This document shows positions 3,001-46,787 of a stretch of DNA of 64,000 nucleotides, one piece after another. The stretch spans positions 1,832-65,831 of the forward strand of contig JBBSYF010000001.1 in assembly GCA_038045405.1 (NCBI GenBank), read 5' to 3'. Numbering within the stretch: position 1 is the stretch's first letter; every line of letters starts with the position of its first letter. Source of the DNA: Nanobdellota archaeon. Its GTDB lineage: Archaea > Nanobdellota > Nanobdellia > Pacearchaeales > GW2011-AR1. The position numbers were made by a program, and so were the translations under genes. Below the pieces are notes generated by a model. The model did not search any database. It was not told the DNA's origin and worked only from the letters and a program-made list of their open reading frames with translations.

Positions 3001-3927
3001 ATGGTCTTTATAAAAAAATGTCCCGAGTGCGGAAGTATTCATCTTACTTATGATTCTCATCTTGGTGAAATAATATGCAATGATTGTGGTTTAGTCGTCG
3101 AGGAAAAGATGGTTGATACGGGAATTGACTTACAAAGTAAGTTCGATAAGGGTGAAAAAAAGGGACGTGGTGGAGCACCAACGAGCATTCAAAAATTCGA
3201 CAAAGGACTAACAACCAACGTTGGAGAGATTTCTGATATATACAAGCTTGAGCCGAAACAAACTAGAAAATTCTTAAGATTAAAAAAGTGGCAAGAGCGT
3301 GTCTCAACGAGCATTGAACGTAATTTGCGTCTTGCAATGGCCGAACTTAGAGTTATAGCTTCTTATCTTAATCTTCCAAACGTCATTAGAGACGACGCAG
3401 CAAGAATTTACAACTATGTTCTTCAGCGTGGCCTCGTTCGAGGCAGAAGCATGGAATCTGTTATCGCTGCATGTCTTTACGCTGCATGTAGAAGTTACAA
3501 CATTCCAAGAACTTTGGATGAAATGGCAACAGCTTCCGACGTTGAAAGAAAAGAAATTGGAAGAACATATCGTTTCATCATAAGAAAACTTGGAATAAAA
3601 GTAAACCAAAGTTCTCCAAAGGATTACATTTCAAGATTCTCCTCAGTTCTCAAACTTTCTCCAAAAACGCAGAATGATGCTCTTAAGGTTCTGAAGAGAG
3701 CAGAAGAAGTTGAATTAACCTCTGGCCGTGGTCCAGCAGGAATTGCTGCTGCAGCATTATACGTCGCTGCTTTGATGAATGACGAAAAGAAAACTCAAAG
3801 AGAAGTTGCAGATATTGCAGGAATAACAGAAGTTACAATAAGAAACCGTTACAAAGAACTTATTGAAAAACTTAATCTAGAAGAAAAAATCAAACAGAAA
3901 GAAGTTGAATCTAAGAAGAAAGTTTGA
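3001..3927 (+). CDS. tfb: Transcription initiation factor IIB (TFB)
   Basis: An N-terminal zinc ribbon 'CPECGS...CNDCG' is followed by two cyclin-like repeats, including 'SMESVIAACLYAACR' and 'GRGPAGIAAAALYVAA'. Confidence 0.95.
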   Translation: MVFIKKCPECGSIHLTYDSHLGEIICNDCGLVVEEKMVDTGIDLQSKFDKGEKKGRGGAPTSIQKFDKGLTTNVGEISDIYKLEPKQTRKFLRLKKWQERVSTSIERNLRLAMAELRVIASYLNLPNVIRDDAARIYNYVLQRGLVRGRSMESVIAACLYAACRSYNIPRTLDEMATASDVERKEIGRTYRFIIRKLGIKVNQSSPKDYISRFSSVLKLSPKTQNDALKVLKRAEEVELTSGRGPAGIAAAALYVAALMNDEKKTQREVADIAGITEVTIRNRYKELIEKLNLEEKIKQKEVESKKKV

Positions 3928-5214: not shown

Positions 5215-8200
5215 TTAAGCACATTCTGGGAATAATGCTTTTATTTCATCGTTAAAACCAAGAACATGTGATACATACTCGTTATTTCCTGTGCAACCCC
5301 ATCCATTATAGTTTCTTAATGCATACGTCCATCCAGAGTACTGTTTATTTGTACAGGTGAATGTTTTTGAATTGGAGTTGTATCCATTTATTAGAACATT
5401 GAGGCCGACGTTTATGTTAGTCTCAAAATCTGAAAGTTGTTTCTTACATTCTTCTAGGTTAGATGAAAGTCCATAAGTACCACAATGACCGATAAGTTGC
5501 CCAGCATTATTTTTGAACGCAATATTTATTTCCATGGTTCCTACACTCCCAAAGTTGTCACCATGAACGGTTTTGGTATAATCTCCTTCACAATACAAAG
5601 GATTTCCATTCTCTTGTGTCGGACTACATTGATGTATATCACTTTCCCTATATGCAACCTGTAAGGCCAAGCATTCAAAGTTTTTTGCTCCTGTTTGTTG
5701 TTTTACAACAGCATCGCTAAATTTAGCATCGCTTGTTTTCTTTGCTTCTGCTAGCTTAAGGATTTCTCTACCTAAAATTATTGAAGATAAATTCCTCTGA
5801 CAAGCAGGTAAATCTAAGCATTTCATTTTTCCATTTGTTTCTGTCGTTACTTCTTTTTGACAATCTTCAAATGTCGTGCATGTAAAGACAGTGGCGCCTG
5901 TCGTTGCAACTGCGGAGGTTGTAGCTGTTCCTGATGTTCCAGAGGTTCCTGAAGTCGATGATGTCCCGGATGCAGAATCAAGTCCAAAAAGTCTTTCGGC
6001 ACCCTGAATAGAATTTTTATCTCTCAAAATTGTTGCAATATTTTTGTTAAAAGAAGTTAAAGCAATCTGAGAATTTCCTATTGTGGTAATAGCATTTACA
6101 TCTGTCCACACATTTAGGTCACTTGAAATTTGCCAATTTTTTTTAGGAATGCTATACTTAAAGAATATTTTATCATCTTTTGTTAAAGTGAATATTTCTT
6201 CAGAGGAATATTCAACACTGTCTGTGACTAAAGACGGATTAGAAGAAAAATCCCCCCCGTCTCTTATATAAACTCTATTCATCAATTTAGAAAGACCTGC
6301 CGTGTAAGATTGACCATCTAGACTTTTAACGAATTCTTTATTTTTATCTGTTAATTGTGCAAACATCTGTTGATCAGTAAGCGTGCTTGAAGCAATAAAT
6401 GCACGTACTGTAGTTCTAAGACCGCCATCAGCATCTGAAGAAGAAACTGCTGTAGAAATCCATCTTTCTTTAGTCAATAGAGTGGATTTAGGATTTACAG
6501 ACCAATGCCAGTTACTTCCTGAAAAAGTGTAGTACAAATTAAATGCAATTGTGTCGTCTTTAAACTCAAAGATAGGATAGGTTATTTTTCCTATATTTTG
6601 CATTTCTTGTGCCTGAGGTGTTTGCGCTGGCACAACAAGAACGTCCCAATGATCCACTTCAAGGGCGTAAACCGCACCACTCACTTTGTTTCTGTATTGT
6701 TGCGCATTATCTCCACTTCTTTTTCCAACATCTTCAAAATTAGTTTTTATGTAAGCATCAAGTTGTGTGTTTAAACGTAAGTCAACTTTGTATCCGTTAG
6801 AATGACTGTACTGTCCTTCTGCATGATTCCCTTCCGTACCGCTTGTGATTGTTATTTCACAACCAGCGCATGATTGTTTAAGGTTCTCAATTTCTATTAA
6901 CGTTTGTTCTCGAACTCCTTGAAGGACAACTGTTCCATCTTTAACGCTGATTCCAGCACCAATCAAGGTTTTACGTGCAGTAGCTTCATTCACTGGAAGA
7001 TTGGATGGAGCTTCTGGAGTAGCAGGTTTTGCAGTTGTAGAAGTATCTGTATCTTTTGTTGGTCGTGTCGCTCGATATGCCTTCACGGCAATTGCTTTGT
7101 AAGCATTTGCCCTTAGAAGTGTTAGATAACCTTTTTTATCATTCTCTGAAACTCTGTTGTAAGCAGCAGCAATCAACCCTACTTTTTTAGAAAGATCTTT
7201 TTCTTTGTCGACAGAATCAACAAGATTAGTAAACTCGTCTGGAGTAAGTTCAGTACTTGAAAGAGCTTGATTAACATTCTTCACCGCATCATTTACTCCC
7301 TTCTCAGTTGAAACAGATCTTATCGTATCTTTAACGCTTTGTCCATCAAGCCAACATTTCATCTTTTCGTTTCCACAAATTCCAACTTCCGTCCATCTTT
7401 GATTTGCAGTTCCAACACCGGAGTCCGTTCCCGTTCCAGGATTAGTTGTTGCACAAACTCTCGTTATTCCTTGATTGTAAATTGCAGGATTAGCAAGTCC
7501 TTCTGCAGCAGATTGAATATTAGGAGTTAACAAATTCAATGCACTTGGAGTTCCTGAAATGCACGCTGCTTCAGTCTTTATGTTTGTTTGACTTGCTTGT
7601 GATGCAACTGCCTGTTCTGTAAGATAATTAATTCCAAACTCCGTTGTAACTTGTTTGAATCCACATTCTTCTTGATTGTTTACAACTATACAAAGTTCTT
7701 TGTATCCTGCAGGAGCGGGGAAGTCGGGAGTATCAGTTTTGAATTCTCCTCGTTTGATAAATCCATTTGCAACAATTCTTCTTTGGCCTGTATCTTCAAA
7801 GAAAGATCCTTCAGCTCCCTTAAGATAAACTTGATAGTAAGCTGGGAAATCTTTTCCTGCATATATGTGATAGAAAACTTTATACTGTGACATTGGGGGG
7901 TTCGTTGCAGTTGTTAATGGAATTTCATCAAATCTCCCATAGAATTGTGGAGGCACATCCGGAGTTGTTAAAGCATCTAATAAATTTCCTCCTTTTGGAG
8001 AAGCTATTGAAATCCAATTGTGACAAACTTCAGTCCCCACACCTTCCACTGTCCTTAACTTAAATGCATTGAATGAGTTTGATGCATAATACTGTGTGAA
8101 GAAATCAATAGAGTCTCCAGCTTTTTGCATTGCGTCCTGAACACCAAGATATTCTCCTCCTCCCCGAGTATTTTGTCCAAGAACAGAACCAATTATTTTA

Positions 8201-11200
8201 GGAGCAGCTATTTTTACAAGAGGAAGACTCTGTCTCCAGAAAAAGTCACACATATAAACAGAATTTATTTCATCACAAATTCCAACTTGCTGTCCAGTTT
8301 CTAAACTAGTTTGTAGGCATTGTTGGTAAGAGTTTGCAACACTCAAGTATCCAGAAAGTCCAGCATTAACTGCTGACAAACAAATAGGCACTTTAACATC
8401 GGGATAATTTGGGAGGCAAAGCATCAAGCCACCAATAACTCCCGATTGTATAACGTCTGCAACAGGGTAATCTCCCCCAAGGTCACATCTACTCGACGGA
8501 CAGATCACAGGGTCACAAACATTGAATAACAAGTTACAATCTGAGGGAGACATAAAATCTTGGCACTGAATACTTGGAATGTTTACTGCGGGAGAACCTA
8601 CCTGAATTTTATTTCTTGCTATGGTTACTTTAGTTATTCCAGGAGTACGCGCTCTTGCTTGTGATGCTTCTACAATTGCACTTTCTGCTCTACTGAAAAG
8701 ATCAGAAGACTCTCCAACACTAAGTCCGAATGCTTGTGTTTGTCCAGTTGCTCTTGGAACGAAATATTGACAGTCATCGTCCGAGGTACTCTGCTTTCTG
8801 TCTTCACCTATATTGCAAATGTAGAAGCTTGAAACTCTCACTGAATCATCATAAGGTTTTATTGCTCCCCCAACAGGAAGTATAGATTTAATTGCAGCAT
8901 ACCATCCATTCTTCAGATCAAATGGAACAGCTACAGGAAGTCCTTTGTAAGGTCCACTTTCAAAGTATGTAACTCTAGCGCTTCCGTCTGGATATGAATT
9001 CTGATATTTGTTGAGTACAAAAGAAGAGAACATTTCTTTTATCTTTTTAGATAATGGATTGTCTGCTGCTAAAAGATTTCCTGAAGAGCTATCATAAACG
9101 TTCTTTATTGTGTAAACATTCTGTCCTGCCAATTCCAATTCTAAAAGATAGTCAACATTGTTTAGATTAATTAACTTAACAGGTGTGCCTGCAGAAATTC
9201 CTAATGTATTTCCCTCTTTTGCAGTTGAGCCATAGTACACCCCTTCCTTTGAAAATTGGTCTTTGATAATTTCAGATAAAGGGTTGTCTACTTGTGCCTG
9301 CATTTTTTGTGAAAGAGCAGTTATAGCACTAATCTTTTCTTTGTTAGCATAAACACCCGTCAAAATCGAAGTTACTTGTGCTTTTGCAATCTCTCCAACT
9401 ATTCCCGGTTGATTCAGAAGTCCCGCATTTAATTCAAGGTCTCTTAGTTGAGTCGCAGAGATACTTTCTGAATTGAGGGAAGCAACAATTTCTGAAGCAG
9501 AAACATCTTTTCCCGAAACTTTGATATTAGGTATACCTGCAACATCTGTCTTAATCTTTTCTTTAGATGTCGTTAATTTTTGTTCTACATATTTTTTAGA
9601 ATCAACAGTCTGCTCGCCCGTAACATCTGTAGATATGACTGATTCTGTTGTAATCTCTTTATCATTCTTTGTTTGTTGGTCCATTGCCTGCGCATAAACA
9701 TTTACTGATGCGTCTATCTCATCAGAATTTCCAGTTAAACAAGAGTCAACACTCTTCCAAGGCCCCTTATTATTAATCTGAGCTCCTTTTTCAACAGCGT
9801 CCTTACATTTTTCAAACCATCCATTAGGCCCCCTCATGACTGTTTGTCTTGCAATTCCTTGCCCCCCAAGATTTGCTAAAAAGTTCTTTGCAGTAAGGAA
9901 AGCCCCAGTAGCAGCACAAACTTTTTTTTCCGTTTGTACTAATGTTCCAAGTTTTGAATTAATTCCTTCCCATTTTTCAATAGTTTTATTTAAGGATTCT
10001 ATTCTGCTTTTTGTTTTTTCCGGACTTAATTGTATTCCCCTCTTTTCAATTCCTATTTTGAAAGAGATATTTGCCTTGGATGTTTCATAATTTACATTTG
10101 GACTTATAGAAACACTTGCAAGTTTTTTCAAAGTTATTTTATTAACACTTATTTGGTACTTATTTGTCCCAACAATTGCATAAGAGTTCAGGTTTATCTT
10201 TACTGAATTAGAAGCCGTTCTCTCTTTTTGTACACCACTCACGTCAAATTCAGCATATTCATCTTCAAGTTTTGTCAAGATAATGAAGTCTGTAGCAGAA
10301 AGATACACTTTCTGGTATTGAGTGATTTGGTTAGGATAGTTTTCATATCCTGGTGCTACGTTTGTTACAGAAATGTCTGTGCTGTAGTCATCAAGGCTAG
10401 GTTCTTCTGCACCATCAAATTCTATTAAGTAAGTTTTCGAACCAATAGTAACCTCGCCTACTGAAACTTCCATGCTTGAAAGTTCCAAAGCATTCTTACA
10501 GATTGGGGGAATGTCTGAATTAGGATAACTCTCTGAAAATTCTTTGCAAAAGGTCGTAGCAGTTTTCTTTTGATTAGTTGTCCATGCTAATTCTATAATA
10601 TTTGTTAATGCTTTTTCTCCAAGCATTTGCATGTCTTCAGGAGGGTATGTTTCTGAAGCAAATTGATTAAGGATTGTTTCATAATCTTTCTTTGAACTCT
10701 CATAGTTCACTCTTGCTTTTACACCTTCAGGAGTAGTTGGAAATTCAGAATCAACAGCACTTGAAAAATCCATTATACCAACTTCTTTTCCGCCAACCGT
10801 CTCTTTCCCTTTTCCATAAAGAACCATATTGAAATTCCATCCTTTAAGGACGTTATTTGCACCTTTTTTAATGGTAGACATAATTTTATCAATCACTCCC
10901 CCATTCTCTTTAGTGGCAGTAGCAATCGTAGAAATTTCATTTTCAGTCAAGCTATTTTGTGTTGTTCTTCCTGCCAAAGGCAGATCAACAAGCATAGTAT
11001 AAGTAGACTCTAAAGTCTTGACGTTTTCTTCATTTCCTATAAATCCGATGTATACTCCTCTGTCCTTGTCGTCTTTGTCTTTGAATGTATAAAGTAAGTC
11101 TCCTATGCCAAATTCTTTTTCATTCTGCCCAGAAACTAAAAGGTTTAATTTAGGACTTACTGTCAAAGAGATAGTTGGAGACTTTGAATCCTGTTTGCAA

Positions 11201-12264
11201 CTAATATCCACTTTTTCAAAAAGGCCTCTTTTGTCTATTTTTTTAACGATACATTTATTCTCGAGGAATCTTTCTCCTTCCTTAATTTCAATAACATCTC
11301 CATTAACAACCAGTCTTGCCCTCGTGCCTGGATTCTCCAGCCCTAGAAGTGTAACCTTCAAATTTCCTAAACAATAATTAAATCCTGGTAAAGGAACTTG
11401 CATTGACTGCCCAATTTTTAAATTTGAAGAAGAAATTTTTATTTTTTCAACTGTTCTTCCTGTCCCATAACTGTTTCTATCAGAATAAATAGAAATGGTT
11501 GCACTATCGTCTCCAATTCCTTCTGCTCTCAAAAATCCTTTTCCCCTCCAGAATCCATACTGTTCTTGTCTTTCATTCCAATCAGAATCGCTCATCTCGG
11601 GAAGATAATATGAAGATGCTCCAACTCCAAATGCATTTTTAATATCATACATCAAAGTTGCCGTCAAGTTTCCTTGAACAAAATCAGGCATCGCACTTTC
11701 ATTTGGTTGTCTTCTTAAAACAATTACTGCGTAACCCATGTTATTTAAAATAGGCTCATTCATTTTTACATTCGAACCTAATAATGATGTTTCTAAAGCC
11801 GCTCTTGCGGGCGTATATGAAAGTCCTTGAACTTCCTTAGGGGCGTTGCCATTATACGAAAAAGAAATTCTGTTTATTGCTTTAACACCTATTAGGGGGT
11901 TTACCTGCATACCAATAATTGGGCAAAAAACTGGAGCGTTATTCTCCTCCAATAAGTCACTTCTTACAACGGAAGGTTGGCATCCATATGGGGAGATTTG
12001 AAGAACAAAATCCTGTCCCGTTTGGCACATCTCTTGATTAAATGTAAATAGAGAACTAGGCACCCCCCCTAATGGTGAGGCTAAAGGCGTATATGCAGTA
12101 CTTGTTCTAGAATATGAAGCTGCTGAAATAATGTTTAACAAGGACAAAACTAAGAATAAAACAGCAAAGGCTAAAACAAAACCTTTAACATAATTTGTAC
12201 TTACATTTTTTCCAATTAAAAGTTCACCTCTTTTTCTTCTCATCTCGTTTTCTCTTTTCATCAT
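5215..12264 (-). CDS. Giant secreted or surface protein (2349 aa) with C-terminal M15/LAS-like peptidase and SLT/lysozyme-like modules
   Basis: This is a single uninterrupted ORF. It has an N-terminal basic region plus hydrophobic helix, 'VKGFVLAFAVLFLVLSLL', and a Ser/Thr/Gly linker. 'ITSGTEGNHAEGQYSHSNGYKVDL...VDHWDV' resembles Zn DD/LD-peptidases. 'AYRES...GSVGTMEINI...ALRNYNGWG' resembles the lytic transglycosylase ES...GLMQ...YN motifs. Confidence 0.85.
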   Translation of the reverse strand: MMKRENEMRRKRGELLIGKNVSTNYVKGFVLAFAVLFLVLSLLNIISAASYSRTSTAYTPLASPLGGVPSSLFTFNQEMCQTGQDFVLQISPYGCQPSVVRSDLLEENNAPVFCPIIGMQVNPLIGVKAINRISFSYNGNAPKEVQGLSYTPARAALETSLLGSNVKMNEPILNNMGYAVIVLRRQPNESAMPDFVQGNLTATLMYDIKNAFGVGASSYYLPEMSDSDWNERQEQYGFWRGKGFLRAEGIGDDSATISIYSDRNSYGTGRTVEKIKISSSNLKIGQSMQVPLPGFNYCLGNLKVTLLGLENPGTRARLVVNGDVIEIKEGERFLENKCIVKKIDKRGLFEKVDISCKQDSKSPTISLTVSPKLNLLVSGQNEKEFGIGDLLYTFKDKDDKDRGVYIGFIGNEENVKTLESTYTMLVDLPLAGRTTQNSLTENEISTIATATKENGGVIDKIMSTIKKGANNVLKGWNFNMVLYGKGKETVGGKEVGIMDFSSAVDSEFPTTPEGVKARVNYESSKKDYETILNQFASETYPPEDMQMLGEKALTNIIELAWTTNQKKTATTFCKEFSESYPNSDIPPICKNALELSSMEVSVGEVTIGSKTYLIEFDGAEEPSLDDYSTDISVTNVAPGYENYPNQITQYQKVYLSATDFIILTKLEDEYAEFDVSGVQKERTASNSVKINLNSYAIVGTNKYQISVNKITLKKLASVSISPNVNYETSKANISFKIGIEKRGIQLSPEKTKSRIESLNKTIEKWEGINSKLGTLVQTEKKVCAATGAFLTAKNFLANLGGQGIARQTVMRGPNGWFEKCKDAVEKGAQINNKGPWKSVDSCLTGNSDEIDASVNVYAQAMDQQTKNDKEITTESVISTDVTGEQTVDSKKYVEQKLTTSKEKIKTDVAGIPNIKVSGKDVSASEIVASLNSESISATQLRDLELNAGLLNQPGIVGEIAKAQVTSILTGVYANKEKISAITALSQKMQAQVDNPLSEIIKDQFSKEGVYYGSTAKEGNTLGISAGTPVKLINLNNVDYLLELELAGQNVYTIKNVYDSSSGNLLAADNPLSKKIKEMFSSFVLNKYQNSYPDGSARVTYFESGPYKGLPVAVPFDLKNGWYAAIKSILPVGGAIKPYDDSVRVSSFYICNIGEDRKQSTSDDDCQYFVPRATGQTQAFGLSVGESSDLFSRAESAIVEASQARARTPGITKVTIARNKIQVGSPAVNIPSIQCQDFMSPSDCNLLFNVCDPVICPSSRCDLGGDYPVADVIQSGVIGGLMLCLPNYPDVKVPICLSAVNAGLSGYLSVANSYQQCLQTSLETGQQVGICDEINSVYMCDFFWRQSLPLVKIAAPKIIGSVLGQNTRGGGEYLGVQDAMQKAGDSIDFFTQYYASNSFNAFKLRTVEGVGTEVCHNWISIASPKGGNLLDALTTPDVPPQFYGRFDEIPLTTATNPPMSQYKVFYHIYAGKDFPAYYQVYLKGAEGSFFEDTGQRRIVANGFIKRGEFKTDTPDFPAPAGYKELCIVVNNQEECGFKQVTTEFGINYLTEQAVASQASQTNIKTEAACISGTPSALNLLTPNIQSAAEGLANPAIYNQGITRVCATTNPGTGTDSGVGTANQRWTEVGICGNEKMKCWLDGQSVKDTIRSVSTEKGVNDAVKNVNQALSSTELTPDEFTNLVDSVDKEKDLSKKVGLIAAAYNRVSENDKKGYLTLLRANAYKAIAVKAYRATRPTKDTDTSTTAKPATPEAPSNLPVNEATARKTLIGAGISVKDGTVVLQGVREQTLIEIENLKQSCAGCEITITSGTEGNHAEGQYSHSNGYKVDLRLNTQLDAYIKTNFEDVGKRSGDNAQQYRNKVSGAVYALEVDHWDVLVVPAQTPQAQEMQNIGKITYPIFEFKDDTIAFNLYYTFSGSNWHWSVNPKSTLLTKERWISTAVSSSDADGGLRTTVRAFIASSTLTDQQMFAQLTDKNKEFVKSLDGQSYTAGLSKLMNRVYIRDGGDFSSNPSLVTDSVEYSSEEIFTLTKDDKIFFKYSIPKKNWQISSDLNVWTDVNAITTIGNSQIALTSFNKNIATILRDKNSIQGAERLFGLDSASGTSSTSGTSGTSGTATTSAVATTGATVFTCTTFEDCQKEVTTETNGKMKCLDLPACQRNLSSIILGREILKLAEAKKTSDAKFSDAVVKQQTGAKNFECLALQVAYRESDIHQCSPTQENGNPLYCEGDYTKTVHGDNFGSVGTMEINIAFKNNAGQLIGHCGTYGLSSNLEECKKQLSDFETNINVGLNVLINGYNSNSKTFTCTNKQYSGWTYALRNYNGWGCTGNNEYVSHVLGFNDEIKALFPECA

Positions 12265-12282
12265 TTTAATTTTTTATTTAAA

Positions 12283-14163
12283 TCACTTAAAGTTTATATC
12301 CAAATTACTATCGCCAAATAAAACATAATTGTTTTGAAGTTTTTCAATTGTATCTGGCGTTGGAAGGCTCTTTGTATTTATCTCTAAAGTGTTTGAACTT
12401 GATAATTCAGATTCAAGTATATACTGACTCTGATTTCCTCCGCCAGCCAAAGCATTTGAAATAACTTGTGCAGGAACGGCTATATCAAAGCACTTCTTTT
12501 CTTCCAACCCTGCTATTCCCAAAACTCCTGCTCTTGGAACATTTATGCATTGCTGCGTTGTCGTTGCCCCTATAGTTATTGAGGTGTTCTTGTATACGTA
12601 AACTTGAACTTCATATTGCCCTTCTGCAAGTTGCACACTTCTCTGTTCAGGATAAGCAACTGTTTTAGAGAAATCTTGAGAAGTAAAGTAAATCATTGCT
12701 TCTCCATTATAGTTTACATTGTCTACTTTCAGTTGAATATTTTTATTGTAAAGTTTGTCCATAATAACATTAACGCTTCCTCCAGAAACTGTTGAAAACA
12801 AATACTTTATGTCTTTAAATCCTGAAGCTTTAGCAATAACATATCCATTCACACATTGAGGGAAGTTGTCGTCAAGCACTCCAGTCTCCGAAGTTGTACC
12901 AATAGCACAAGTATTTCCAAAACATTCGTAAGAAACATCTGCCTTCACCGCATGTCCATCCGTATCTGCTGTGCTTACCTGTACTTTTGTATTCTTGTAG
13001 GTACAGAATTCAGAATCACTTTCTGCAATAGCTGTTCCATTCAAAGAAACTCTTGGATTGTTATTTTGAAGAACAACAGCCATTGGGAACTGGAAGATTT
13101 CATCACCAGAAGAAACTTGAACTAAAACGGGATACTTCACACTGTAAACAAAGTGATATGGAACATAACAGAATCCTAGTATACCCAAGCCTTGTTGGTT
13201 CCCAACGGGATTTGAAACGAGCAGCGCTCCATCCGAAGGACTAACCTCTAAACTGCTTGTCCAGTTTCTTGAATTCAAAAATCTCACATCTTCCGTAACT
13301 CCGGGCACATTGACATTAAAGTAATCTTTGTCCCCACCACTATTCTTCAACGCAAGAGTGTTTACTTCTATAGCTTCTTGTAAGTCATCAAAGACTTTAT
13401 TTGCATTCCACACCATCGGAGAGCAAGTAACTTCAACCCCATCAACAGGAGCATAAAGTCTTAAAATATCAACAGAATAATTCTCCAAGAATAAACTTTT
13501 TTGCTCTTCATTATAAACTTTGATTGAGGAAGAATATAACTTTCCAAGATCAGAACTTACTATAACGTTATGTTTTTTCACAATGACGCTTTCATTTCCT
13601 ATGGCAATATTTAAGTTAAAGTTAAGTGTAACATCAACCTTATTGTTTTGGATGGAAACGCTTGAAGTAACCGGTTTTTCAAGATTAATTTCAAATCCTT
13701 GTTTGTAATAAGAATCAAAGTTACAGTTATCTACTTTTTCAGAAACAAACTGTCCAAGTTGTGTTTCCATAACTTCCTTCTTTGGAACTTGTTCTCGTTG
13801 AATGTTATTTCCAGAAACATAATACCAATAAGGGATTTGATTTCCCAGGAAATTAAGCTGTGATGAAAAAGGCATATATTTCGAACCAGGTTCAAACTCC
13901 GGAGTGTATATGTAACCCCCTTGACTTTCTAAAACACGAATTCCCGTTAAGGTATCTTGTTCAAGGCACGAAAGAAGAGTCGTATAAACTGGTTGAATAT
14001 CTGCCGGAATTTCAGGGTTTCCTAACGAGCCTCTCAAAAGAGCATAGGTTAACGCAGTTCCAACAACCAGCACTGCAATGATTATGAAAACGGTTACCTG
14101 CCCTTTCGTTTGGTTTGGTAAAAGCGAACGAGACCGAACTTGTGAGAGTCCTTTATTCTTCAT
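12283..14163 (-). CDS. Large secreted protein with a type IV pilin-like (class III) signal peptide
   Basis: The N-terminus is 'MKNKGLSQVRSRSLLPNQTKGQ/VTVFIIIAVLVVGTAL'. The start was taken at the internal ATG that overlaps the upstream stop (ATGA), whereas the track start at 14250 is TTG. Confidence 0.7.
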   Translation of the reverse strand: MKNKGLSQVRSRSLLPNQTKGQVTVFIIIAVLVVGTALTYALLRGSLGNPEIPADIQPVYTTLLSCLEQDTLTGIRVLESQGGYIYTPEFEPGSKYMPFSSQLNFLGNQIPYWYYVSGNNIQREQVPKKEVMETQLGQFVSEKVDNCNFDSYYKQGFEINLEKPVTSSVSIQNNKVDVTLNFNLNIAIGNESVIVKKHNVIVSSDLGKLYSSSIKVYNEEQKSLFLENYSVDILRLYAPVDGVEVTCSPMVWNANKVFDDLQEAIEVNTLALKNSGGDKDYFNVNVPGVTEDVRFLNSRNWTSSLEVSPSDGALLVSNPVGNQQGLGILGFCYVPYHFVYSVKYPVLVQVSSGDEIFQFPMAVVLQNNNPRVSLNGTAIAESDSEFCTYKNTKVQVSTADTDGHAVKADVSYECFGNTCAIGTTSETGVLDDNFPQCVNGYVIAKASGFKDIKYLFSTVSGGSVNVIMDKLYNKNIQLKVDNVNYNGEAMIYFTSQDFSKTVAYPEQRSVQLAEGQYEVQVYVYKNTSITIGATTTQQCINVPRAGVLGIAGLEEKKCFDIAVPAQVISNALAGGGNQSQYILESELSSSNTLEINTKSLPTPDTIEKLQNNYVLFGDSNLDINFK

Positions 14164-14288
14164 TTTTCTCTCCTTTCTAATTTTTTCTTTATCAATTCCA
14201 AAATTTCCGTATTGATATCTTTCTCTATACTTTTTTTGAATTTTTTCCAAAGCTCTTCATCTTCCACTAGAAGTAAATATTTTTTCAT
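14160..14288 (-). CDS. Small ribbon-helix-helix-like protein (42 aa, below the track cutoff)
   Basis: Hand translation gives MKKYLLLVEDEELWKKFKKSIEKDINTEILELIKKKLERREK, which has a beta-strand plus two helices in an RHH-like pattern. Its stop overlaps the ATG of the next gene. Confidence 0.35.
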   Translation of the reverse strand: MKKYLLLVEDEELWKKFKKSIEKDINTEILELIKKKLERREK

Positions 14289-14442
14289 AGTCCTCTTAGC
14301 TCACCAAGTCAGAAATGTTAAATTTTAGAAATATATAAATGTTTCTTAGTTAATTACTTAGTAAGTTAGTTACTAACAAAAATCAGTTGAGGTCAAGAAT
14401 AAAAAGAGGTAGTAAGTAGGTACAAACGTAAGTCCAAAAGAA

Positions 14443-14700
14443 TTAGTAAGATCTTGGTCGAATTACACTGGCTAACCCAAGAACAATTAATAGAACTCCG
14501 ACAGTGACATTAAATGGCTTTACAACTGCAACAGGCAAAGCCGGAACTTTAACCCACAAAAAAGTCAGATTTAAGAAGTAAAGTCCTAAAGCAATTCCTA
14601 AAATCAAAAGGAAAATTTTAAGTCCACTCGTTCTTGGAGGAACACCCATTCCTCCCATGTAAGGATTTCTATTGAACAGTCCCATAAAGAGAAGTAACAA
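14443..14700 (-). CDS. Small membrane protein
   Basis: The ORF is 85 aa. It has two hydrophobic helices. Confidence 0.35.
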   Translation of the reverse strand: MLLLFMGLFNRNPYMGGMGVPPRTSGLKIFLLILGIALGLYFLNLTFLWVKVPALPVAVVKPFNVTVGVLLIVLGLASVIRPRSY

Positions 14701-14807
14701 ACATTATATTTAAATATTTGGTGAAATTCCTAAAAGGACCAGGTCCCGTTGCCTATTGTTCAGAACAGAATAGAAAGATTAATAAATTAGTGGAAATTAA
14801 CTTAATA

Positions 14808-15857
14808 ATGAAATCAAGGGAAAGAAGAATAAAGCTAAAAAAGGGTGTTCAAAGAGAGATAATCCTTGAAGCTTCCAAAAGAGAAGGAAATATGAAGAAG
14901 ATGGCAGCAAAAGTAAAAGTCCCATACTCTACAATGAAGAATTACTCGGCAGAATACAGATTCTTACCGGAGAATTTATTTAATAATTTGTTAAAATTGT
15001 CCAACAAATCTACAGAAAATATTGATGCTTCTTACTTAGACTATAAATGGGGGCAACGCTTAGGAGGAAAATTGGGAATAAGAGCACTTGAAAAGAAATA
15101 TCCAGGTAAGATTAAGAAATGGAGAAGTTTAGCCATGAAAAAAGCACTAAGGACTAATCCACGTCTAAAAAAGATAAACTTACCCAAGATTAGTGAAGAG
15201 TTAGCAGAGTTTATAGGAATCTATTTAGGGGATGGTACAATGACAACAAATCAGATTAGAATAGTTGGCGATGCTAGGTACGATGTATTCTACTTCGAAT
15301 ACATATCTAAAATGGTTTATCATTTATTCGGGTTAAAAACTTCTTTAATAAAACATAAGGATACAAACACCTTTCTAGTTGTTGTTTATTCAAAGGCTTT
15401 ATGTGAGTTTATGAATCAAAATTTTAACTTGAAACCAGGAGATAAGATAAGAAATCAAAGCGGTATCCCTCAAAAGATTTTTCGGAATATAAATTTCGCA
15501 AAGGCTTGCTTAAGAGGGCTTATAGACACTGACGGATCGGTTTCAAGAAGGGGGAGAAACGGTAGTCAGTTTTGCATCCAATTCACTTCACACAATAAAA
15601 AACTTTTAGGTCAAGTGAAAAAAATAAACAAAAGACTTAAAATTTTTACATTTGGGGATGAAACAGGAACAGGTACGAATAAGTGGGAGAATATAGTCAA
15701 ATATTTTCAAATTGTTGGTAGCTCAAATCCAAAACACATAGTACGTTTTCTTTTAAGAAAAGAAGGTAGAGTTATTTATAGAGATGAATTGTCTTTTTAC
15801 TTCAAACAGGAAAGGTTTAAAGATTTAAATTTACCATTCAATTTAGGGGGCGTATAA
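14808..15857 (+). CDS. Free-standing double-motif LAGLIDADG homing endonuclease-like protein
   Basis: The two motifs are 'LAEFIGIYLGDGT' and 'CLRGLIDTDGS'. It is a paralog of the ORF at 32148-33059. The ATG at 14808 aligns with the paralog N-terminus, whereas the track start at 14718 is TTG. The last 10 nt overlap tRNA-Val. Confidence 0.8.
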   Translation: MKSRERRIKLKKGVQREIILEASKREGNMKKMAAKVKVPYSTMKNYSAEYRFLPENLFNNLLKLSNKSTENIDASYLDYKWGQRLGGKLGIRALEKKYPGKIKKWRSLAMKKALRTNPRLKKINLPKISEELAEFIGIYLGDGTMTTNQIRIVGDARYDVFYFEYISKMVYHLFGLKTSLIKHKDTNTFLVVVYSKALCEFMNQNFNLKPGDKIRNQSGIPQKIFRNINFAKACLRGLIDTDGSVSRRGRNGSQFCIQFTSHNKKLLGQVKKINKRLKIFTFGDETGTGTNKWENIVKYFQIVGSSNPKHIVRFLLRKEGRVIYRDELSFYFKQERFKDLNLPFNLGGV

Positions 15858-15918
15858 GCTAGCGGTAAACTGTGTCCTTGACGTGGACAATTCCCAAGTT
15901 CAACTCTTGGTACGCCCA
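15848..15918 (+). tRNA. tRNA-Val(GAC)
   Basis: The acceptor is GGGCGTA/TACGCCC and the anticodon arm is TGTCC-TTGACGT-GGACA. The T arm is CCAAG-TTCAACT-CTTGG. The D arm AGCT-AGCGGTA-AACT has one C-A mismatch. Confidence 0.75.
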
Positions 15919-18578: not shown

Positions 18579-19655
18579 ATGACTTCAAAAAATAATCACT
18601 CATGTTTAGTAGTAGATCAACGTATTCTTGAATATAAAACTCTAATTAGTCCTTACGATCTGAAAAAAGACTTGCCTCAAACAAGCAAAACAAAAGAAAC
18701 AACTATTTATGGAAGAAAGAGTATAGAAGACATCTTAGACGGGAAGGATTCTAAGATTACAATAATTGTCGGACCCTGTTCAATCCACAGTATTGAATCT
18801 GCTAAAGAGTATGCAACAAGGCTCAAGGAGATATCAGATAAAATCTCTGATAAGTTTTTGGTTGTGATGAGAACTTACTTTGAAAAGCCAAGAACAAGCG
18901 TCGGATGGAAAGGTTTCATCTATGATCCTCATCTTGATGGTTCAAATAACATAAATTGGGGCTTACACCTTTCTCGTGAATTTCTCTTACACAATGCAAG
19001 AATCGGATTACCTTCTGCTACAGAATATTTAGAAACGTTTACTCCGCAGTATAACTCGGATCTCATTTCTTGGTCGGCAATAGGAGCGAGAACAGTTGAA
19101 TCTCCACAGCATAGGCAGTTAGCTTCGGGACTTTCAATGCCAGTAGGGTTCAAGAATAATACAGAAGGGAATGTTAAAGTTGCAGTAAACGCTATGCTGT
19201 CTGCAAGAGAAGAGCACTCGTTTTTAGGAATAAATGAGCAAGGAACTCCGTGTGTTGTAATTACTTCTGGAAATCCATACACCCATATTGTCCTTAGAGG
19301 AAGCGAAACAAAAACAAATTACGACTATGAAAATGTTCGTGAAGCACAAAGTCAGCTTGAAGCTCACAAGCTTTCTCCAAAAATTATGATAGACTGTAAT
19401 CATGGAAACTCTAGCAAAGATTACAGAAATCAAGCAAGAGTCTTTGAAGATATACTCAACCAAATCAAAGAAGGAAATAAAAACATAATAGGAGTAATGA
19501 TAGAGTCTAACTTAAATCCGGGAAATCAGCAAATACCTCATAATCTCAACGGTTTTGATGCGAAAAAGTTAGCGTACGGAGTTTCAGTAACGGATTCATG
19601 TCTTGGATGGGAAGAGACTGAGGCTCTTCTGTTAAATGCCCACAGAAGTCTTTGA
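18579..19655 (+). CDS. 3-deoxy-7-phosphoheptulonate (DAHP) synthase, class I (AroG/F/H-like)
   Basis: 'IIVGPCSIH', 'MRTYFEKPRTSVGWKG', 'SWSAIGARTVESPQHRQLASG' and 'KIMIDCNHGNS' match the bacterial class I-alpha pattern. Confidence 0.85.
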   Translation: MTSKNNHSCLVVDQRILEYKTLISPYDLKKDLPQTSKTKETTIYGRKSIEDILDGKDSKITIIVGPCSIHSIESAKEYATRLKEISDKISDKFLVVMRTYFEKPRTSVGWKGFIYDPHLDGSNNINWGLHLSREFLLHNARIGLPSATEYLETFTPQYNSDLISWSAIGARTVESPQHRQLASGLSMPVGFKNNTEGNVKVAVNAMLSAREEHSFLGINEQGTPCVVITSGNPYTHIVLRGSETKTNYDYENVREAQSQLEAHKLSPKIMIDCNHGNSSKDYRNQARVFEDILNQIKEGNKNIIGVMIESNLNPGNQQIPHNLNGFDAKKLAYGVSVTDSCLGWEETEALLLNAHRSL

Positions 19656-19744
19656 AATGAGTCATTTACAAAACCTGAATTGAAAAGATTGGTTCAGGCA
19701 AATAAGAAATCTTTTAAACTGCTTATTCCCTTAGTTTTTCGTAA

Positions 19745-19816
19745 GCCTCGTTAGCTCAGGGGTAGAGCGGCAGTTTTGTAAACTGTAGGTCGGGGGTTCA
19801 AATCCCTCACGAGGCT
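19745..19816 (+). tRNA. tRNA-Thr(UGU)
   Basis: The acceptor is GCCTCGT/ACGAGGC and the D arm is GCTC-AGGGGTAG-AGC. The anticodon loop is TTTGTAA. The T arm is GGGGG-TTCAAAT-CCCTC. Confidence 0.9.
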
Positions 19817-19985
19817 TTGAATAGAGTGAAAAGACGCGTGTAGAAAAATTTCCTATTTTTACTCACGAGGCTTTTGAATGAAATGAAAAAGCAAGTAGAC
19901 GAAATTTATTTCAGTCACGAGGCTTTTGAGCAAAGCGAAAAAGTTCGTTGGAGAAATTCATTTCAACTCAGAGGCTTTTGAACTC
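19807..19985 (+). repeat. Tandem array (about 3.3 units of 52-56 bp) seeded in the 3' end of tRNA-Thr
   Basis: The head TCACGAGGCTTT(T)GA occurs at 19807, 19863 and 19915, with a variant TCAGAGGCTTTTGA at 19968. The unit bodies are related but diverged (..GAAAAAG....GT.GA.GAAATT.ATTTC..). Confidence 0.8.
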
Positions 19986-19987
19986 AA

Positions 19988-20461
19988 TCAAAAATCTTCT
20001 AAGATTCTTTCAAGTCTTTTCTTACCGCTTACTACAACATCTTTAGCAACATAAGCAGCATTAGCAGCAACAGCAATTAATCCAACAGCGCCAATAGCTT
20101 TCTTAGTTTTCTGAGCATAACTCATACGGAAAACTCCTTGAGCAAGATAGAATCCTTGATATCCCATAAATGCATTAGTTGCAGTTTCACCAAACTTGTC
20201 TTCAAAAAAGTAAGCAAAAGCAGCTTGGCTTAAAGCAGGAATGATAGTACAGATAACTGCATGCCCTATTGTCAAATCTTTCTCTTTCCACCCAATCCCT
20301 TCGGCAAGTCTCTTTTGGTACCTTCTCATTAACGCTCCACCTATTTCAAGAACATAAATGAAGTGGGCAATTTTTTTTGTTTTTTCCCAAGAAGAAGTTT
20401 CTGGGAGCTCATTAAATTCCGTGATTATTCCATCAACTTTAGTTTCGAGGTCATCTGTCAT
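19988..20461 (-). CDS. Hypothetical protein
   Basis: The ORF is 157 aa and partly hydrophobic. No recognisable motif was found. Confidence 0.3.
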   Translation of the reverse strand: MTDDLETKVDGIITEFNELPETSSWEKTKKIAHFIYVLEIGGALMRRYQKRLAEGIGWKEKDLTIGHAVICTIIPALSQAAFAYFFEDKFGETATNAFMGYQGFYLAQGVFRMSYAQKTKKAIGAVGLIAVAANAAYVAKDVVVSGKKRLERILEDF

Positions 20462-21012
20462 TTTTCAAGAATCTCAGCATTTCCATCTTCAATCAGAATT
20501 TTGGCAATTTCTTTAGAAATATTTGAGATTTCTCCCTTTGCAAAGGGTCCAACTCTTTCTCCATCCATACCCATAAATTCTCCAATATCATTTTTGAAAA
20601 CAACAAGTTCATTTTTGGAGTTGTCTTCTTTCTTACCTCCAAGAAGTTCAGCAAGGCTTTTGTCTGAAGTTTCTATATTCTTCATCATTTCTTCAAACAA
20701 AGATTTCTCAAATGAGAGCATATTATCAAAATCTTGTTTTGAAATGCCCGTTTCAGCAGCAATCAAAACCAAATCAAGTATTTTCTTCCTTCTTCTTGTC
20801 ATCAATTCTTTAAACAGAGTTGTAGCATTCTCAAGCTGCTTTTTTGTTTTTGCAATTATATCTGAAAAGATGTCATCATCCTTCGAAACAATCTCTTTTT
20901 TATCTTTGAGGTATTCAGCTATTTCTAATATGAAATTCTTTGAAAGAACTTGTAATTGGTCAGAATACCTCTCTTTTCTTGCAGCTTCATATAAGTCATT
21001 GTAGGTTATCAT
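20458..21012 (-). CDS. GINS subunit (Gins51/Gins15-like)
   Basis: The N-terminus 'YNDLYEAARKERYSDQLQVLSKNFILEIAEYL' and the C-terminal 'VGPFAKGEISNISKEIAKILIEDGNAEIL' match the archaeal GINS A and B domains. Confidence 0.6.
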   Translation of the reverse strand: MITYNDLYEAARKERYSDQLQVLSKNFILEIAEYLKDKKEIVSKDDDIFSDIIAKTKKQLENATTLFKELMTRRRKKILDLVLIAAETGISKQDFDNMLSFEKSLFEEMMKNIETSDKSLAELLGGKKEDNSKNELVVFKNDIGEFMGMDGERVGPFAKGEISNISKEIAKILIEDGNAEILEK

Positions 21013-21070
21013 AAAAATACAAATAGTAACGATTTTTAATAATTGTTGTGTTGGAAAAGGTCTAAAATTA

Positions 21071-22450
21071 TTATTTATTGAACCCTAACTTTTCAAGGAG
21101 TTCCTTTCCAGAAATCATCCCAAGTTTCCCGTTTCGCGCATTCTTCTCACAGAATTTTTCTCTTTTAATCAGGGTCGTATCAGGGCTTGTTGAAGGGATT
21201 GACATTTCAGTCTCGCCCCTATTAAGGTTTACAAGAGGGTTTTTCTTTGGATAAGCAGGTTTGAATTTCTGAAGAAATGATGCAAATCCAGTAGTTCTTG
21301 ATTTTGGAGGTGAGACATTATAAAATAGAACAGGAACCGGGTCTGCAGAGTGGTTTTTTAGTTTACAAGGAGTTGAATGATCTGCGGTAACAATCACTTT
21401 TATTCTATTTGGGGGAGCAAATTCCCTCAAAAAATTAAAAAGAGTTTTATCGACATACTCTATCATTGATTTTTTCTCAAACGGTTTGTTATCATGCCCC
21501 GGAATGTCTGTTTCTTTTATATGAATGTAAGCGTAGTCTACATCTTTATAATTTTTTTTCAATACTTTAATTGAAAAGGCACATGCTTCTTCCAGTCCTT
21601 CACGAAGGTTTTCATATGAATCTAAACTTTTCAATTTGGGGTAATCAAAAGAAAAAACTTTCATTCCACAAGTTTTGGCAAATCCAATTTCTAAAGGCAT
21701 GTAAGAAACAGAAAGCCATCTCTTGTAAAATTTTAATTTAGGGGTTTCAATGCCCGGGCCCCTCATAAGAATATAATTAGCAGGTAAGAGCCCTTTGATT
21801 CTTCTAGATTCATTAATAGGATGATGATTCAAAACCTCAAAAACCTTTTCGGTAAACTCTTTTAGTACATTAACTGTGTACTGAGCATTATCTTCCTCAT
21901 CTAAAGCTCTAATCACCCCCAATCTTTCTTGACTTGACATTCCGATTCCAGAATATGCAGGATCGTTTCCAGTAACATTATCTGAAAAACCACCACGCAA
22001 AACAAGAACAGCTCTGTGTTGAATTGTTGGTTTGAAAACAAATTCACATGGAAGTTTTATCTTACTTATTGCCTTTGCTAAAATCTCTGCTTCATAAGTA
22101 GTTAACGTTCTTCCCGCCCTTCTATCAATGATGTTCCCGTCTTTTGGAGAGTCAATCGTAGCAAAGTCCACTCTCAAAGCCAAATCCCCTCTAACAAGTT
22201 TGATGTCCGTCCCCCTTACTTCAAGTTGTCCTCTTGTACTATCTGTCAGATTATTTCCAAAAATAGAAACTATTGCCTCATCAGACTGTGGAACAAATCC
22301 CGGCTTCACAGAGTACATATATCCCATCTCCCCACGCGCAGCTAAAAAATCAAGATTTGGCGTCTCCGCCGCCTCAAGAGGAGTTTTATCTCCAAGTTGC
22401 TTGCATGGTAAGTCCCCCATTCCATCCATGACTACCAGTATTCCTTTCAT
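21071..22450 (-). CDS. apgM: 2,3-bisphosphoglycerate-independent phosphoglycerate mutase, archaeal type
   Basis: 'MKGILVVMDGMGD', 'TPNLDFLA' and 'VTADHSTPC' are present. Confidence 0.85.
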   Translation of the reverse strand: MKGILVVMDGMGDLPCKQLGDKTPLEAAETPNLDFLAARGEMGYMYSVKPGFVPQSDEAIVSIFGNNLTDSTRGQLEVRGTDIKLVRGDLALRVDFATIDSPKDGNIIDRRAGRTLTTYEAEILAKAISKIKLPCEFVFKPTIQHRAVLVLRGGFSDNVTGNDPAYSGIGMSSQERLGVIRALDEEDNAQYTVNVLKEFTEKVFEVLNHHPINESRRIKGLLPANYILMRGPGIETPKLKFYKRWLSVSYMPLEIGFAKTCGMKVFSFDYPKLKSLDSYENLREGLEEACAFSIKVLKKNYKDVDYAYIHIKETDIPGHDNKPFEKKSMIEYVDKTLFNFLREFAPPNRIKVIVTADHSTPCKLKNHSADPVPVLFYNVSPPKSRTTGFASFLQKFKPAYPKKNPLVNLNRGETEMSIPSTSPDTTLIKREKFCEKNARNGKLGMISGKELLEKLGFNK

Positions 22451-32089: not shown

Positions 32090-32162
32090 TAGCCCCACTC
32101 GGATTCGAACCGAGGTTTCAGCCTTCAAAGGGCCGCGAACTTGACCACTATTCTATGGGGCT
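32090..32162 (-). tRNA. tRNA-Gln(UUG)
   Basis: Read on the minus strand, the acceptor is AGCCCCA/TGGGGCT and the D arm is GAAT-AGTGGTCAA-GTTC. The anticodon arm is CGGCC-CTTTGAA-GGCTG. The T arm is CTCGG-TTCGAAT-CCGAG. Confidence 0.88.
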
Positions 32163-45578: not shown

Positions 45579-46421
45579 TTAGAACAAAAGTTGCCAATTT
45601 CCATTTTTCCAAAGCCAAGTAAATATTAAAAAACTAATCAAAAACGCTGGAGAGAAAGGAATTCCATGCCTTATTAAAACAAACTTCTGACTTTTTTTCA
45701 GCTGTTTAATTTGTTCTTTCGCCAGCCCATCCCATGTTGCCTTTATCACTTTTCCTTTAACACGAACATCTTTGTAAAGCCAGTCTCCTTCGGTAAGTTC
45801 ACTTGTTCTCGTCTTCTTTATCATGCATGATTCATCAACTGCCTTGGCATACATGTAAACATAAGGGATAAAGAACACAACTACTGCTAAATAGACTAAA
45901 ATTTCATCTAAGAAGAAACCTACAACAGACAAGAGGAGTGCAAAGAACAAAACTAAAAAACTTGCTTTAAAGTGGGTTTTAAACTGCTTTCTAAATTCTT
46001 TTTTGAATTGTTCAAAGTTTCTTATACTGAAAAAAAGACTCCCTAATAAACTGTACACCGCCCCAACAAGGAGAAAGATAATAAAAAATATTACAAAAAA
46101 CTCGAGATTCCTCGTGAAACTTTCTTGAAGAGGAAGAATAGCCCCTAATGCAATCATCAGTTTTGCATCTCCTCCTGCGAACATCTTTCCATAATAAAAC
46201 GCGTTTCCCAATAAAAAGAAAATACCAAGTCCAATCAAGCCTTGATAAAAAAATCCAAAACCTTGCATGGAAAACAGCGAATAAAAAAACCTAAAGCCAA
46301 GAGCAAAAACAATCAACGAAAAGTTAAGCCAGTCTGCTATTTCTCTTTTCCTCAAATCCTGAACAACTGCAAAAGTCATCCAAACCAACGCAAGTGAAAA
46401 TAAGAAAATTGTTTCTATCAT
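45579..46421 (-). CDS. A24-family prepilin/preflagellin peptidase
   Basis: It is polytopic. The catalytic Asp contexts 'VQDLRKREIADWLN' and 'FAGGDAKLM' are present, and there is an extra C-terminal soluble domain. Confidence 0.85.
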   Translation of the reverse strand: MIETIFLFSLALVWMTFAVVQDLRKREIADWLNFSLIVFALGFRFFYSLFSMQGFGFFYQGLIGLGIFFLLGNAFYYGKMFAGGDAKLMIALGAILPLQESFTRNLEFFVIFFIIFLLVGAVYSLLGSLFFSIRNFEQFKKEFRKQFKTHFKASFLVLFFALLLSVVGFFLDEILVYLAVVVFFIPYVYMYAKAVDESCMIKKTRTSELTEGDWLYKDVRVKGKVIKATWDGLAKEQIKQLKKSQKFVLIRHGIPFSPAFLISFLIFTWLWKNGNWQLLF

Positions 46422-46539
46422 AATATAAATCAGAAAACTAAATTTATAAAATGCACGAATAAGATTAGTTAAAAGCAGTGTTAATAGAATAAAATCAAGA
46501 TGTTAAGATTAAAAGTGATTTAACTAGAGTTTTTAATTT

Positions 46540-46650: not shown

Positions 46651-46787
46651 GATTCAGTAAAGAAGGTTCAATTTAAAAAAGTTGGGATGAGGTTGTTAAG
46701 GGCTTAATATAAACACAAGGCTAATAAAAAATTAGTTAGTAGAAGTTACAGTGTACAATGTTTGCTATTAAAATTAATCGGGGAGTT

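Follow-up and report, generated by a model that had tools for sequence, protein, structure and literature searches.

A conserved operon of Pacearchaeota and Woesearchaeota encodes a class III signal protein and a giant secreted protein with exchangeable tails predicted to act on peptidoglycan

A stretch of 64,000 nucleotides from a Nanobdellota archaeon (assembly GCA_038045405.1, contig JBBSYF010000001.1, positions 1,832 to 65,831), referred to here as the window, contains a three-gene operon encoding proteins of 42 and 626 residues and a giant protein of 2349 residues. We propose, at slightly better than even probability, that this operon specifies a surface-anchored complex predicted to attack bacterial cell walls. 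The open reading frames (ORFs) are:

14288..14160, minus strand: ORF of the 42-residue protein
14163..12283, minus strand: ORF of the 626-residue protein (length counted from the ATG; the open frame extends to a TTG at 14250)
12264..5215, minus strand: ORF of the giant, 2349 residues

The window has a GC content of ~34% and codes for TFIIB (3001-3927), ribosomal protein S3Ae, GINS and an A24 peptidase, which mark it as archaeal; relatives carry the taxon labels Pacearchaeota, Woesearchaeota or 'Nanoarchaeota', and an identical copy of the 42-residue gene is found on a 760-kb contig from Hainich groundwater. A preliminary description of this DNA had proposed an operon of three co-directional genes on the minus strand, with an ATGA overlap between the first two and an 18-nt gap ahead of the giant. 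The ORF coordinates agree with this, and both junctions were read directly (14163-14160 and 12265-12282, respectively). ORFs were then called and clustered in 80 fetched relative loci together with the window (n=81), in which the gene order is a small protein with two transmembrane helices (2-TM), the 42-residue protein, the 626-residue protein and the giant. The giant lies directly 3' of the 626-residue gene in 79 of the 81 loci, the exceptions being contig ends; of these 79, 39 show a 4-nt overlap of the two genes and 60 a spacing of 25 nt or less (median -4 nt). This tight and syntenic arrangement bears out the proposed operon and, as judged from gene spacing, shows the 626-residue protein and the giant to be translationally coupled. 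Since relatives are numerous for each of the three ORFs and the 42-residue ORF displays coding-type substitution, we regard all of them as real genes. The genes that flank this module are housekeeping genes, namely those for rpS3Ae, an rpL44e-like protein (assigned by eye), TFIIB, GINS and phosphoglycerate mutase. Given the conserved synteny and these flanks, the module is, on comparative grounds, a vertically inherited core chromosomal operon of Pacearchaeota and Woesearchaeota. We rejected an origin from a mobile element or a prophage, since in most of the 80 loci the module sits between the rpS3Ae/rpL44e-like genes and TFIIB.

The giant belongs to a large family, with more than 371 word-indexed matches and 1058 clusters at 50% identity; the latter were obtained in a phmmer search with the most conserved core domain against 1.84 billion representatives. 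Since the 150 clusters among the matches listed all share one architecture, no bridge to another family was seen among them. The regions ahead of the tail are:

12121..12264, minus strand: Sec-type signal peptide (residues 1-48), predicted signal peptidase I site I-S-A↓A-S-Y-S-R (arrow, cleavage)
7045..12087, minus strand: conserved core (residues ~60-1740), column identity 0.4-0.6

The preliminary description had considered the giant as a substrate of the prepilin peptidase, pointing to VKG-FVLAFAVLFLVLSLL (K27-G28 before a hydrophobic stretch), and had kept an ordinary Sec signal as the alternative. The motif is present, and a few close relatives share it. Comparison of 210 homologues supports the alternative and contradicts the first idea: [KR][GA] adjoins the hydrophobic stretch in only 8 of them, so that the conserved [KR]-[GA] and conserved helix of a class III signal are absent from the family; the stretch itself is unconserved (18% column identity over the first 50 residues), and a (V/I)-S-A↓(A)-Y-x-R site that is conserved across the family comes after it. 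The signal region is also the only transmembrane-like segment of the giant. We therefore conclude from family conservation that the giant is a Sec and signal peptidase I substrate that lacks a membrane anchor. Any presentation of it on a pilus would have to come about through the 626-residue protein.

Within the core, the Cys-rich part spanning residues 1100-1650 (window 7315-8967) is the most conserved, with a column identity of 0.56-0.69. The giant contains 44 Cys, many of them invariant, and 6 N-x-S/T sequons in its 2349 residues compared with ~20 expected from composition (our own rough estimate), an unusual make-up for an archaeal surface protein. The core gave no match in Pfam (whole and as 350-residue tiles), NCBIfam or PDB (single-sequence and profile searches). 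An AlphaFold2 (AF2) model of residues 551-1750, with a mean predicted local distance difference test score (pLDDT) of 66, contains long helices as well as beta-sandwich domains; its most conserved part is unmodelled. When this model was compared with PDB and BFVD using Foldseek, nothing better than E 0.015-0.04 was returned; in the absence of a significant match, tape-measure, tail-fibre, teneurin/Rhs-shell and PilY1-like folds for the core are without support.

From about residue 1740 the family diverges, and the tail of the giant in the window can be divided into three modules:

6625..6987, minus strand: tail module A (residues ~1760-1880), with motifs that by eye resemble those of LAS/M15 metallopeptidases (S-H-S-N-G-Y-K-V-D at 1820, D-H-W-D at 1871)
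5815..6582, minus strand: tail module B (residues ~1895-2150), with the signature P-x-F-E-F-x-D-x...Y-Y-x-F...W-x-W-S (alternatively P-x-F-E-F-x-D-G at its start)
5218..5814, minus strand: tail module C (residues 2151-2349), a divergent SLT/GH23 lytic transglycosylase domain

The putative catalytic residue of module C is Glu2207 (window 5644-5646), which lies in an E-S motif (E2207-S2208, AYRES) whose Glu is invariant and whose Ser is nearly so in 20 homologous modules. Two further GH23 signatures (G-L-M-Q and A-Y-N-x-G in their general form) are represented by G-x-M-[QE]-I-N (GTMEIN in this protein) and Y-N-G-W, of which G, M, N and Y-N-G are invariant. Pfam SLT matches 3 of the 20 modules homologous to C (best E 1.6e-4), and a hidden Markov model of module C aligns, at E 1e-15 to 1e-21, with those regions of loci L007, L057 and L065 that score above the Pfam SLT gathering threshold. 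When a profile of the whole family was searched against PDB, goose-type lysozymes (GH23) were the sole matches, at E 0.17-0.85. As judged from these comparisons, module C is homologous to bona fide SLT domains, and a muralytic role is predicted for it. Module A occurs in only a handful of relatives. Module B was detected in 50 of 120 relatives, with the number of copies ranging from one to three (two in homologue P0112; also noted in P0053). It is an unannotated domain with no Pfam match and may bind the wall.

In other relatives the tail contains SLT, Amidase_2 with Peptidase_M15_4, VanY, Amidase_3, DUF1615, CAP or weak NlpC/P60 domains, and in some a pretoxin-HINT (PT-HINT) domain with further sequence after it. 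Two homologues, P0002 and P0003, are 98-100% identical to the giant of the window in the core, 29-33% identical in module B and 44-90% identical in module C. Near-identical cores that carry such divergent modules lead us to conclude, from sequence comparison, that tails are exchanged as cassettes between near-identical strains, and this swapping suggests an arms race. A role as an autolysin of the archaeon's own wall is unlikely, because the tail enzymes differ in kind among relatives and are swapped between strains.

The 626-residue protein belongs to a family of more than 2400 matches that share 55-80% identity and many invariant residues, including eight Cys; its gene is encoded in 477 GTDB species-representative genomes. 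Its N-terminus carries the following signal:

14029..14163, minus strand: class III signal with a 21-residue leader, predicted cleavage between G21 and Q22 and a retained hydrophobic helix, QVTVFIIIAVLVVGTALTYALL

The features of a class III signal are all found here, comprising a charged leader, the sequence ..TKG↓QVTVFIIIAVLVVGTALTYALL, a small residue at -1, a hydrophobic stretch that would be retained and an A24 prepilin peptidase gene in the same genome. The family N-terminus is invariant in the form [KR]-x0-1-[GAS]↓Q-[VIL]-T-[IV]-F-I-I-I-A, in which Q22, T24, F26, I28 and A30 do not vary and position -1 is G, A or S; K or R exactly at -2 is not universal, and many members have K-[SNH]-G. 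The preliminary description had recognised this signal, and the sequence that it quoted, ..QTKG↓QVTVFIIIAVLVVG, is present; cleavage is expected after G21 (KG↓QVT), not after Q22 as it had supposed. The conserved hydrophobic helix, which is the single hydrophobic segment of the protein, is consistent with retention in the mature form. Searches of Pfam, NCBIfam and PDB by sequence and by profile returned nothing beyond noise. In an AF2 model (pLDDT 61), an N-terminal helix and a second helix are followed by an alpha/beta region; the middle is unmodelled, and the C-terminal beta-sandwich domains (residues 390-626) are well modelled. Foldseek matched it to generic CnaB/Ig/transthyretin-like surface domains only (Gram-positive pilins, TIE, SlaB), and no pilin-head structural match was found. 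The model is thus consistent with a surface stalk, for which no specific family can be named.

Upstream of these genes, the following elements are found:

14332..14346, minus strand: archaeal promoter ~45 nt upstream of the ATG at 14288, in which a BRE-like (transcription factor B recognition element) AAGAAAC precedes the TATA box TTTATATA
14354..14364, no strand: palindrome TTACTNAGTAA, probable operator, just upstream of the promoter
14443..14685, minus strand: small 2-TM protein, 80 residues from its ATG (ENA gene calls also give 80), with two hydrophobic segments

The 42-residue protein has the consensus MKKYLLL[IV]EDEKLW.KFK...KDINTEI..LI.KK, with 16 invariant residues, and represents a family of 344 clusters, all unnamed and 40-50 residues long. 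Variability at the three codon positions of its ORF (0.10/0.05/0.30) is typical of coding sequence. The gene is present in 38 of the 81 loci, always together with the palindrome region. Upstream of it the block AAGAAACATTTATATA is nearly invariant across loci, in the order TTACTNAGTAA and then AAGAAAC-ATTTATATA (the BRE/TATA promoter), and AGTAA/TTACT half-sites lie just upstream of the palindrome. The palindrome occurs once in the window; in 1.27 Mb of related loci it has 28 exact copies, 25 of which precede a 42-residue gene by no more than 110 nt, and it is absent upstream of the 626-residue gene in all 43 loci that lack the 42-residue gene. Because the palindrome, positioned just upstream of the promoter, tracks the presence of the gene, we predict that the 42-residue protein is probably a DNA-binding regulator of the operon, with TTACTNAGTAA as its candidate operator. 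The preliminary description had likened this protein to the ribbon-helix-helix (RHH; CopG/Arc/MetJ) family, which its length and strand-helix-helix pattern (~45 residues) fit by eye. No RHH match was obtained in Pfam (E<=1), NCBIfam or a PDB profile search (E<=10), a weak negative for so short a protein, and its alignment with CopG using hhalign gave a probability of 0.6%; membership of this family is not supported. Homologues of the 2-TM protein lie directly upstream of the module in 62 of the 81 loci, and its gene is a conserved upstream neighbour and probably a separate transcription unit.

The A24 peptidase, which the preliminary description had located at 45579-46421, was confirmed by its match to PF01478 and is part of a type IV pilus-like locus on the minus strand (45579-58590):

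45579..46421, minus strand: A24 prepilin-type peptidase (PF01478, E 6e-13), unlinked to the operon and ~31 kb away
46788-50297, minus strand: seven small pilin-like ORFs with class III-like N-termini, for example KKG/FLLAEE and RRG/DIPIVILV
50653-52833, minus strand: polytopic membrane protein, 726 residues
52896-55211, minus strand: T2SSE ATPase, 771 residues
55270-58590, minus strand: Cys-rich secreted protein, 1106 residues

From its sequence, this peptidase is the presumed processing enzyme for the 626-residue protein.

Together these observations can be accommodated in the following model. A promoter with an upstream palindromic operator would drive the three genes, and the 42-residue protein would probably bind the palindrome and regulate the operon. 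The A24 peptidase would probably cut the class III signal of the 626-residue protein after G21, and the mature protein would then stay attached by its N-terminal helix, which would sit in the membrane or form part of a short pilin-like stalk. The giant would be made in step with this partner by virtue of translational coupling, would leave the cell by the Sec route and would lose its signal peptide to signal peptidase I near residue 48; as it has no anchor of its own, it would probably be held at the surface by binding the 626-residue protein, with the core of ~1700 residues acting as a scaffold or a reach-out arm. The swappable tail, which in this giant comprises the SLT/GH23 domain, the unverified M15-like module and the repeat module, would cut peptidoglycan. 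Since no murein is expected in the archaeon's own cells, the tail is likely to target a bacterial wall, that of a host or of prey, and this wall may be opened locally for attachment, nutrients or killing, in agreement with a published proposal.

The theme recurs in a relative (locus L001), where the giant is directly followed by a second pair (18747-21895) consisting of a 272-residue class III protein (RKRG/QVTIFIIIAV) and a 776-residue secreted protein, in which two PG_binding_1 domains are combined with a YkuD L,D-transpeptidase domain. This repetition of a class III protein beside a murein-targeting protein supports the theme. Several points weigh against the model. Binding between the partner and the giant is our inference from gene arrangement and conservation, and the processing and location of the 626-residue protein are read from sequence alone. 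To call the core a scaffold is a guess, given its lack of a recognisable fold and the mediocre quality of the AF2 models (pLDDT 61 and 66). Module A has no Pfam match even at E<=10, so its identity as a peptidase is a motif-level lead, and module C of this giant itself does not match Pfam SLT (PF01464) at E<=1. Finally, the 42-residue gene is missing from 43 of the 81 loci and is thus dispensable for the module.

Other readings of the pair have to be weighed against the same evidence. One is display at a pilus tip, in which the 626-residue protein would be a large minor pilin at the end of a filament built by the ATPase and platform protein (50653-55211) and would carry the Sec-exported giant in the manner of PilY1/PilC, so that the enzyme tail would be delivered at a distance by a pilus that might retract. 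The invariant class III N-terminus and conserved hydrophobic helix of the partner, the complete pilus-type gene set in the window and the translational coupling that is the norm for the pair all favour this, as does the use of Sec by a non-pilin giant, as is known for PilY1. However, the module is linked to pilus genes in none of the 80 related loci, the partner (~610 residues) is far larger than filament pilins and matched no pilin head in structure, typical pilin head domains do not show the 55-80% identity that it keeps across an order, and class III signals are also found on archaeal proteins that do not form filaments. We consider this reading unlikely. Least probable of all, to the point of near-exclusion, is the version of the preliminary description in which the giant itself is cut by the A24 peptidase at VKG/F and anchored or polymerised like a pilin: K27-G28 directly precedes the hydrophobic stretch here and in a few close relatives, but the rarity of [KR][GA] among the homologues, the unconserved stretch and the conserved signal peptidase I site after it argue against this.

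The near-universal, single-copy and core-chromosomal character of the module, beside ribosomal genes, would also suit a two-component S-layer, with the giant as outer lattice, the 626-residue protein as a membrane stalk in the manner of SlaA/SlaB, and the lytic tail as a surface-exposed add-on. In line with this, a large anchorless Sec protein is paired with a smaller anchored beta-sandwich protein, and SlaB (8qox_B) is among the Foldseek matches of the partner. That match is nevertheless to a generic beta-sandwich, at a template-modelling score of ~0.15, and the partner, unlike SlaB, is anchored N-terminally by a class III helix; moreover, the conservation of the core (40-69% identity) is unusually high for an S-layer protein, its many invariant Cys and the mere 6 sequons of the giant also argue against one, and half of the loci have a putative dedicated small repressor or activator. 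An S-layer is therefore improbable in our estimation. We rate as quite improbable, too, a free bacteriolysin, in which the giant is released as a polymorphic antibacterial toxin and the 626-residue protein serves an unrelated purpose or merely assists, for instance during export or maturation. Its Sec signal and lack of an anchor fit secretion, and polymorphic tails, PT-HINT and toxin-like ends in some members and cassette swapping at strain level resemble polymorphic toxin systems; yet a conserved core of 1700 residues would be a large investment in a diffusible enzyme for a genome of ~0.76 Mb, and the 4-nt coupling suggests a stoichiometric complex, as does the strong conservation seen in partner and core alike.

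Large SLT-domain proteins specific to Pacearchaeota and Woesearchaeota have been reported, and an attack on bacterial walls proposed for them (Castelle et al., 2021, PMC8204110; Vigneron et al., 2022, PMC9723730). These 'large murein transglycosylase proteins' were noted as uncharacterised, in a one-paragraph mention based on an SLT match (PMC8204110, PMC9723730). The suggestion in the preliminary description that the giant is a surface protein engaged in host interaction is in line with this literature (PMC8204110). The giant shares with fam00969 of Castelle et al. its taxa, its size (~2000-3000 residues or more), a predicted extracellular location and an SLT/GH23 domain; matches to the giant family bear Pacearchaeota and Woesearchaeota names, are 1800-3800 residues long and have a Sec signal, and many contain SLT. 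The giant family is almost certainly this published family, and neither the family nor its headline function is new, since both were noted in those two studies. No account of the coupled class III partner, the division into core and tail, the range of hydrolase cassettes, their exchange at strain level, the regulator/operator pair or the Sec-type signal of the giant emerged from our text searches of the literature.

The conserved N-terminal body, variable C-terminal effector and cassette exchange of the giant family are all found in polymorphic toxins (Rhs, CdiA, MafB), as is the pretoxin-HINT domain of some giants, whereas most giant tails are peptidoglycan hydrolases rather than nucleases or deaminases. 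Archaeal examples of polymorphic toxins have reportedly been described by Makarova and colleagues in 2019 (cited via PMC12352652). No cognate immunity gene is evident downstream of the giant, either in the window (tRNA, nucleotidyltransferase, TFIIB) or in the related loci (TFIIB or unrelated ORFs); immunity may not be needed against murein hydrolases. Searches of Pfam, NCBIfam, PDB and Foldseek revealed no known delivery scaffold in the core (RHS/YD or haemagglutinin repeats, or markers of type V, VI and VII secretion systems).

In bacteria, minor pilins carry the Sec-exported PilY1/PilC. The pair resembles such type IV pilus tip complexes and modular pilins in placing a class III protein beside a large Sec-exported non-pilin, with a peptidase and an ATPase in the genome, and differs in having no sequence or fold similarity to PilY1 or minor pilins and no linkage to pilus genes. 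Archaeal surface proteins that form no filaments, among them the sugar-binding proteins of Sulfolobus, can also bear class III signals. As in SlaA/SlaB of Sulfolobales, a large anchorless outer protein and a smaller, tethered, beta-sandwich-rich protein are encoded together, but the two systems lack homology and the module described here has an N-terminal class III anchor and is Cys-rich, highly conserved, sequon-poor and equipped with enzyme tails. The SPEARE proteins of Nanohaloarchaeota, said to have been described by Hamm and colleagues in 2019 and to contain protease, adhesion and nuclease domains in organisms with archaeal hosts, are likewise giant multi-domain DPANN surface proteins for which host interaction is proposed; the giant is unrelated to them in sequence and domain content, and its proposed targets are bacteria, whereas the hosts in the SPEARE case are archaea.

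The module varies in several loci. Extra genes lie upstream of the 2-TM gene in L003 (165-3324) and L005 (3703-6786), and between the 2-TM and 42-residue genes in L058 (3884-9705) and L067 (2121-7965); they encode 790-860-residue proteins with class III-like or transmembrane N-termini, a subtilase (Peptidase_S8 and Inhibitor_I9) and a ~190-residue protein with a weak match to an outer-membrane beta-barrel, and in L067 a second copy of the 42-residue gene precedes one of them. In L010 (13749-13949) and L033 (18219-18416) a second 2-TM copy just downstream of the giant means that the module is bracketed by two copies. An additional ORF for a hydrophobic protein of 56-59 residues (MExxLLxWxxxxxNFxIL...) lies between the 626-residue gene and the giant in L024, L043, L071, L075, L079 and L080. 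Two contigs that carry the full module beside TFIIB and archaeal ribosomal protein genes are labelled as bacterial, L033 (JAHYJW010000006, 'Patescibacteria group bacterium') and L006 (DATKUW010000047, 'Bacillota bacterium'); since TFIIB adjoins the module, we take them for archaeal contigs mis-binned into bacterial metagenome-assembled genomes. In many loci a tRNA gene upstream of the 2-TM gene appears as spurious 'RIELG..PRQG' ORFs. In the window, an ORF with a LAGLIDADG domain (14718-15857, plus strand) lies just upstream of the module and abuts or overlaps tRNA-Val (15848-15918, plus strand); the ORFs at 26434-29409 (plus strand) and 32148-33059 (minus strand) cluster with it and may therefore be inteins or homing endonucleases.

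Among uncultured archaea, Pacearchaeota and Woesearchaeota rank with the most abundant in groundwater, lakes and sediments. To our knowledge, all DPANN archaea cultured so far live on other archaea. A broader and more tentative proposal, to which we give clearly less than an even chance, is that the class III-anchored ~610-residue protein and the 1700-residue Cys-rich core form an undescribed surface machine, universal in Pacearchaeota and Woesearchaeota, that engages bacteria, with the tail breaching murein and the core and partner serving as contact or conduit. A core, single-copy module with a murein-specific, variable end is among the most concrete genomic handles on a lifestyle of depending on or killing bacteria. 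This idea becomes testable through defined domains (E2207), a partner protein with cleavage sites and an operator for the 42-residue regulator, and the type of tail might be correlated with co-occurring bacteria. The N-terminus of the giant is also now read as Sec-type rather than prepilin-type. If the proposal is true, these abundant DPANN archaea would be episymbionts or predators of bacteria, not of archaea, and their host range would be set by their tail cassettes.

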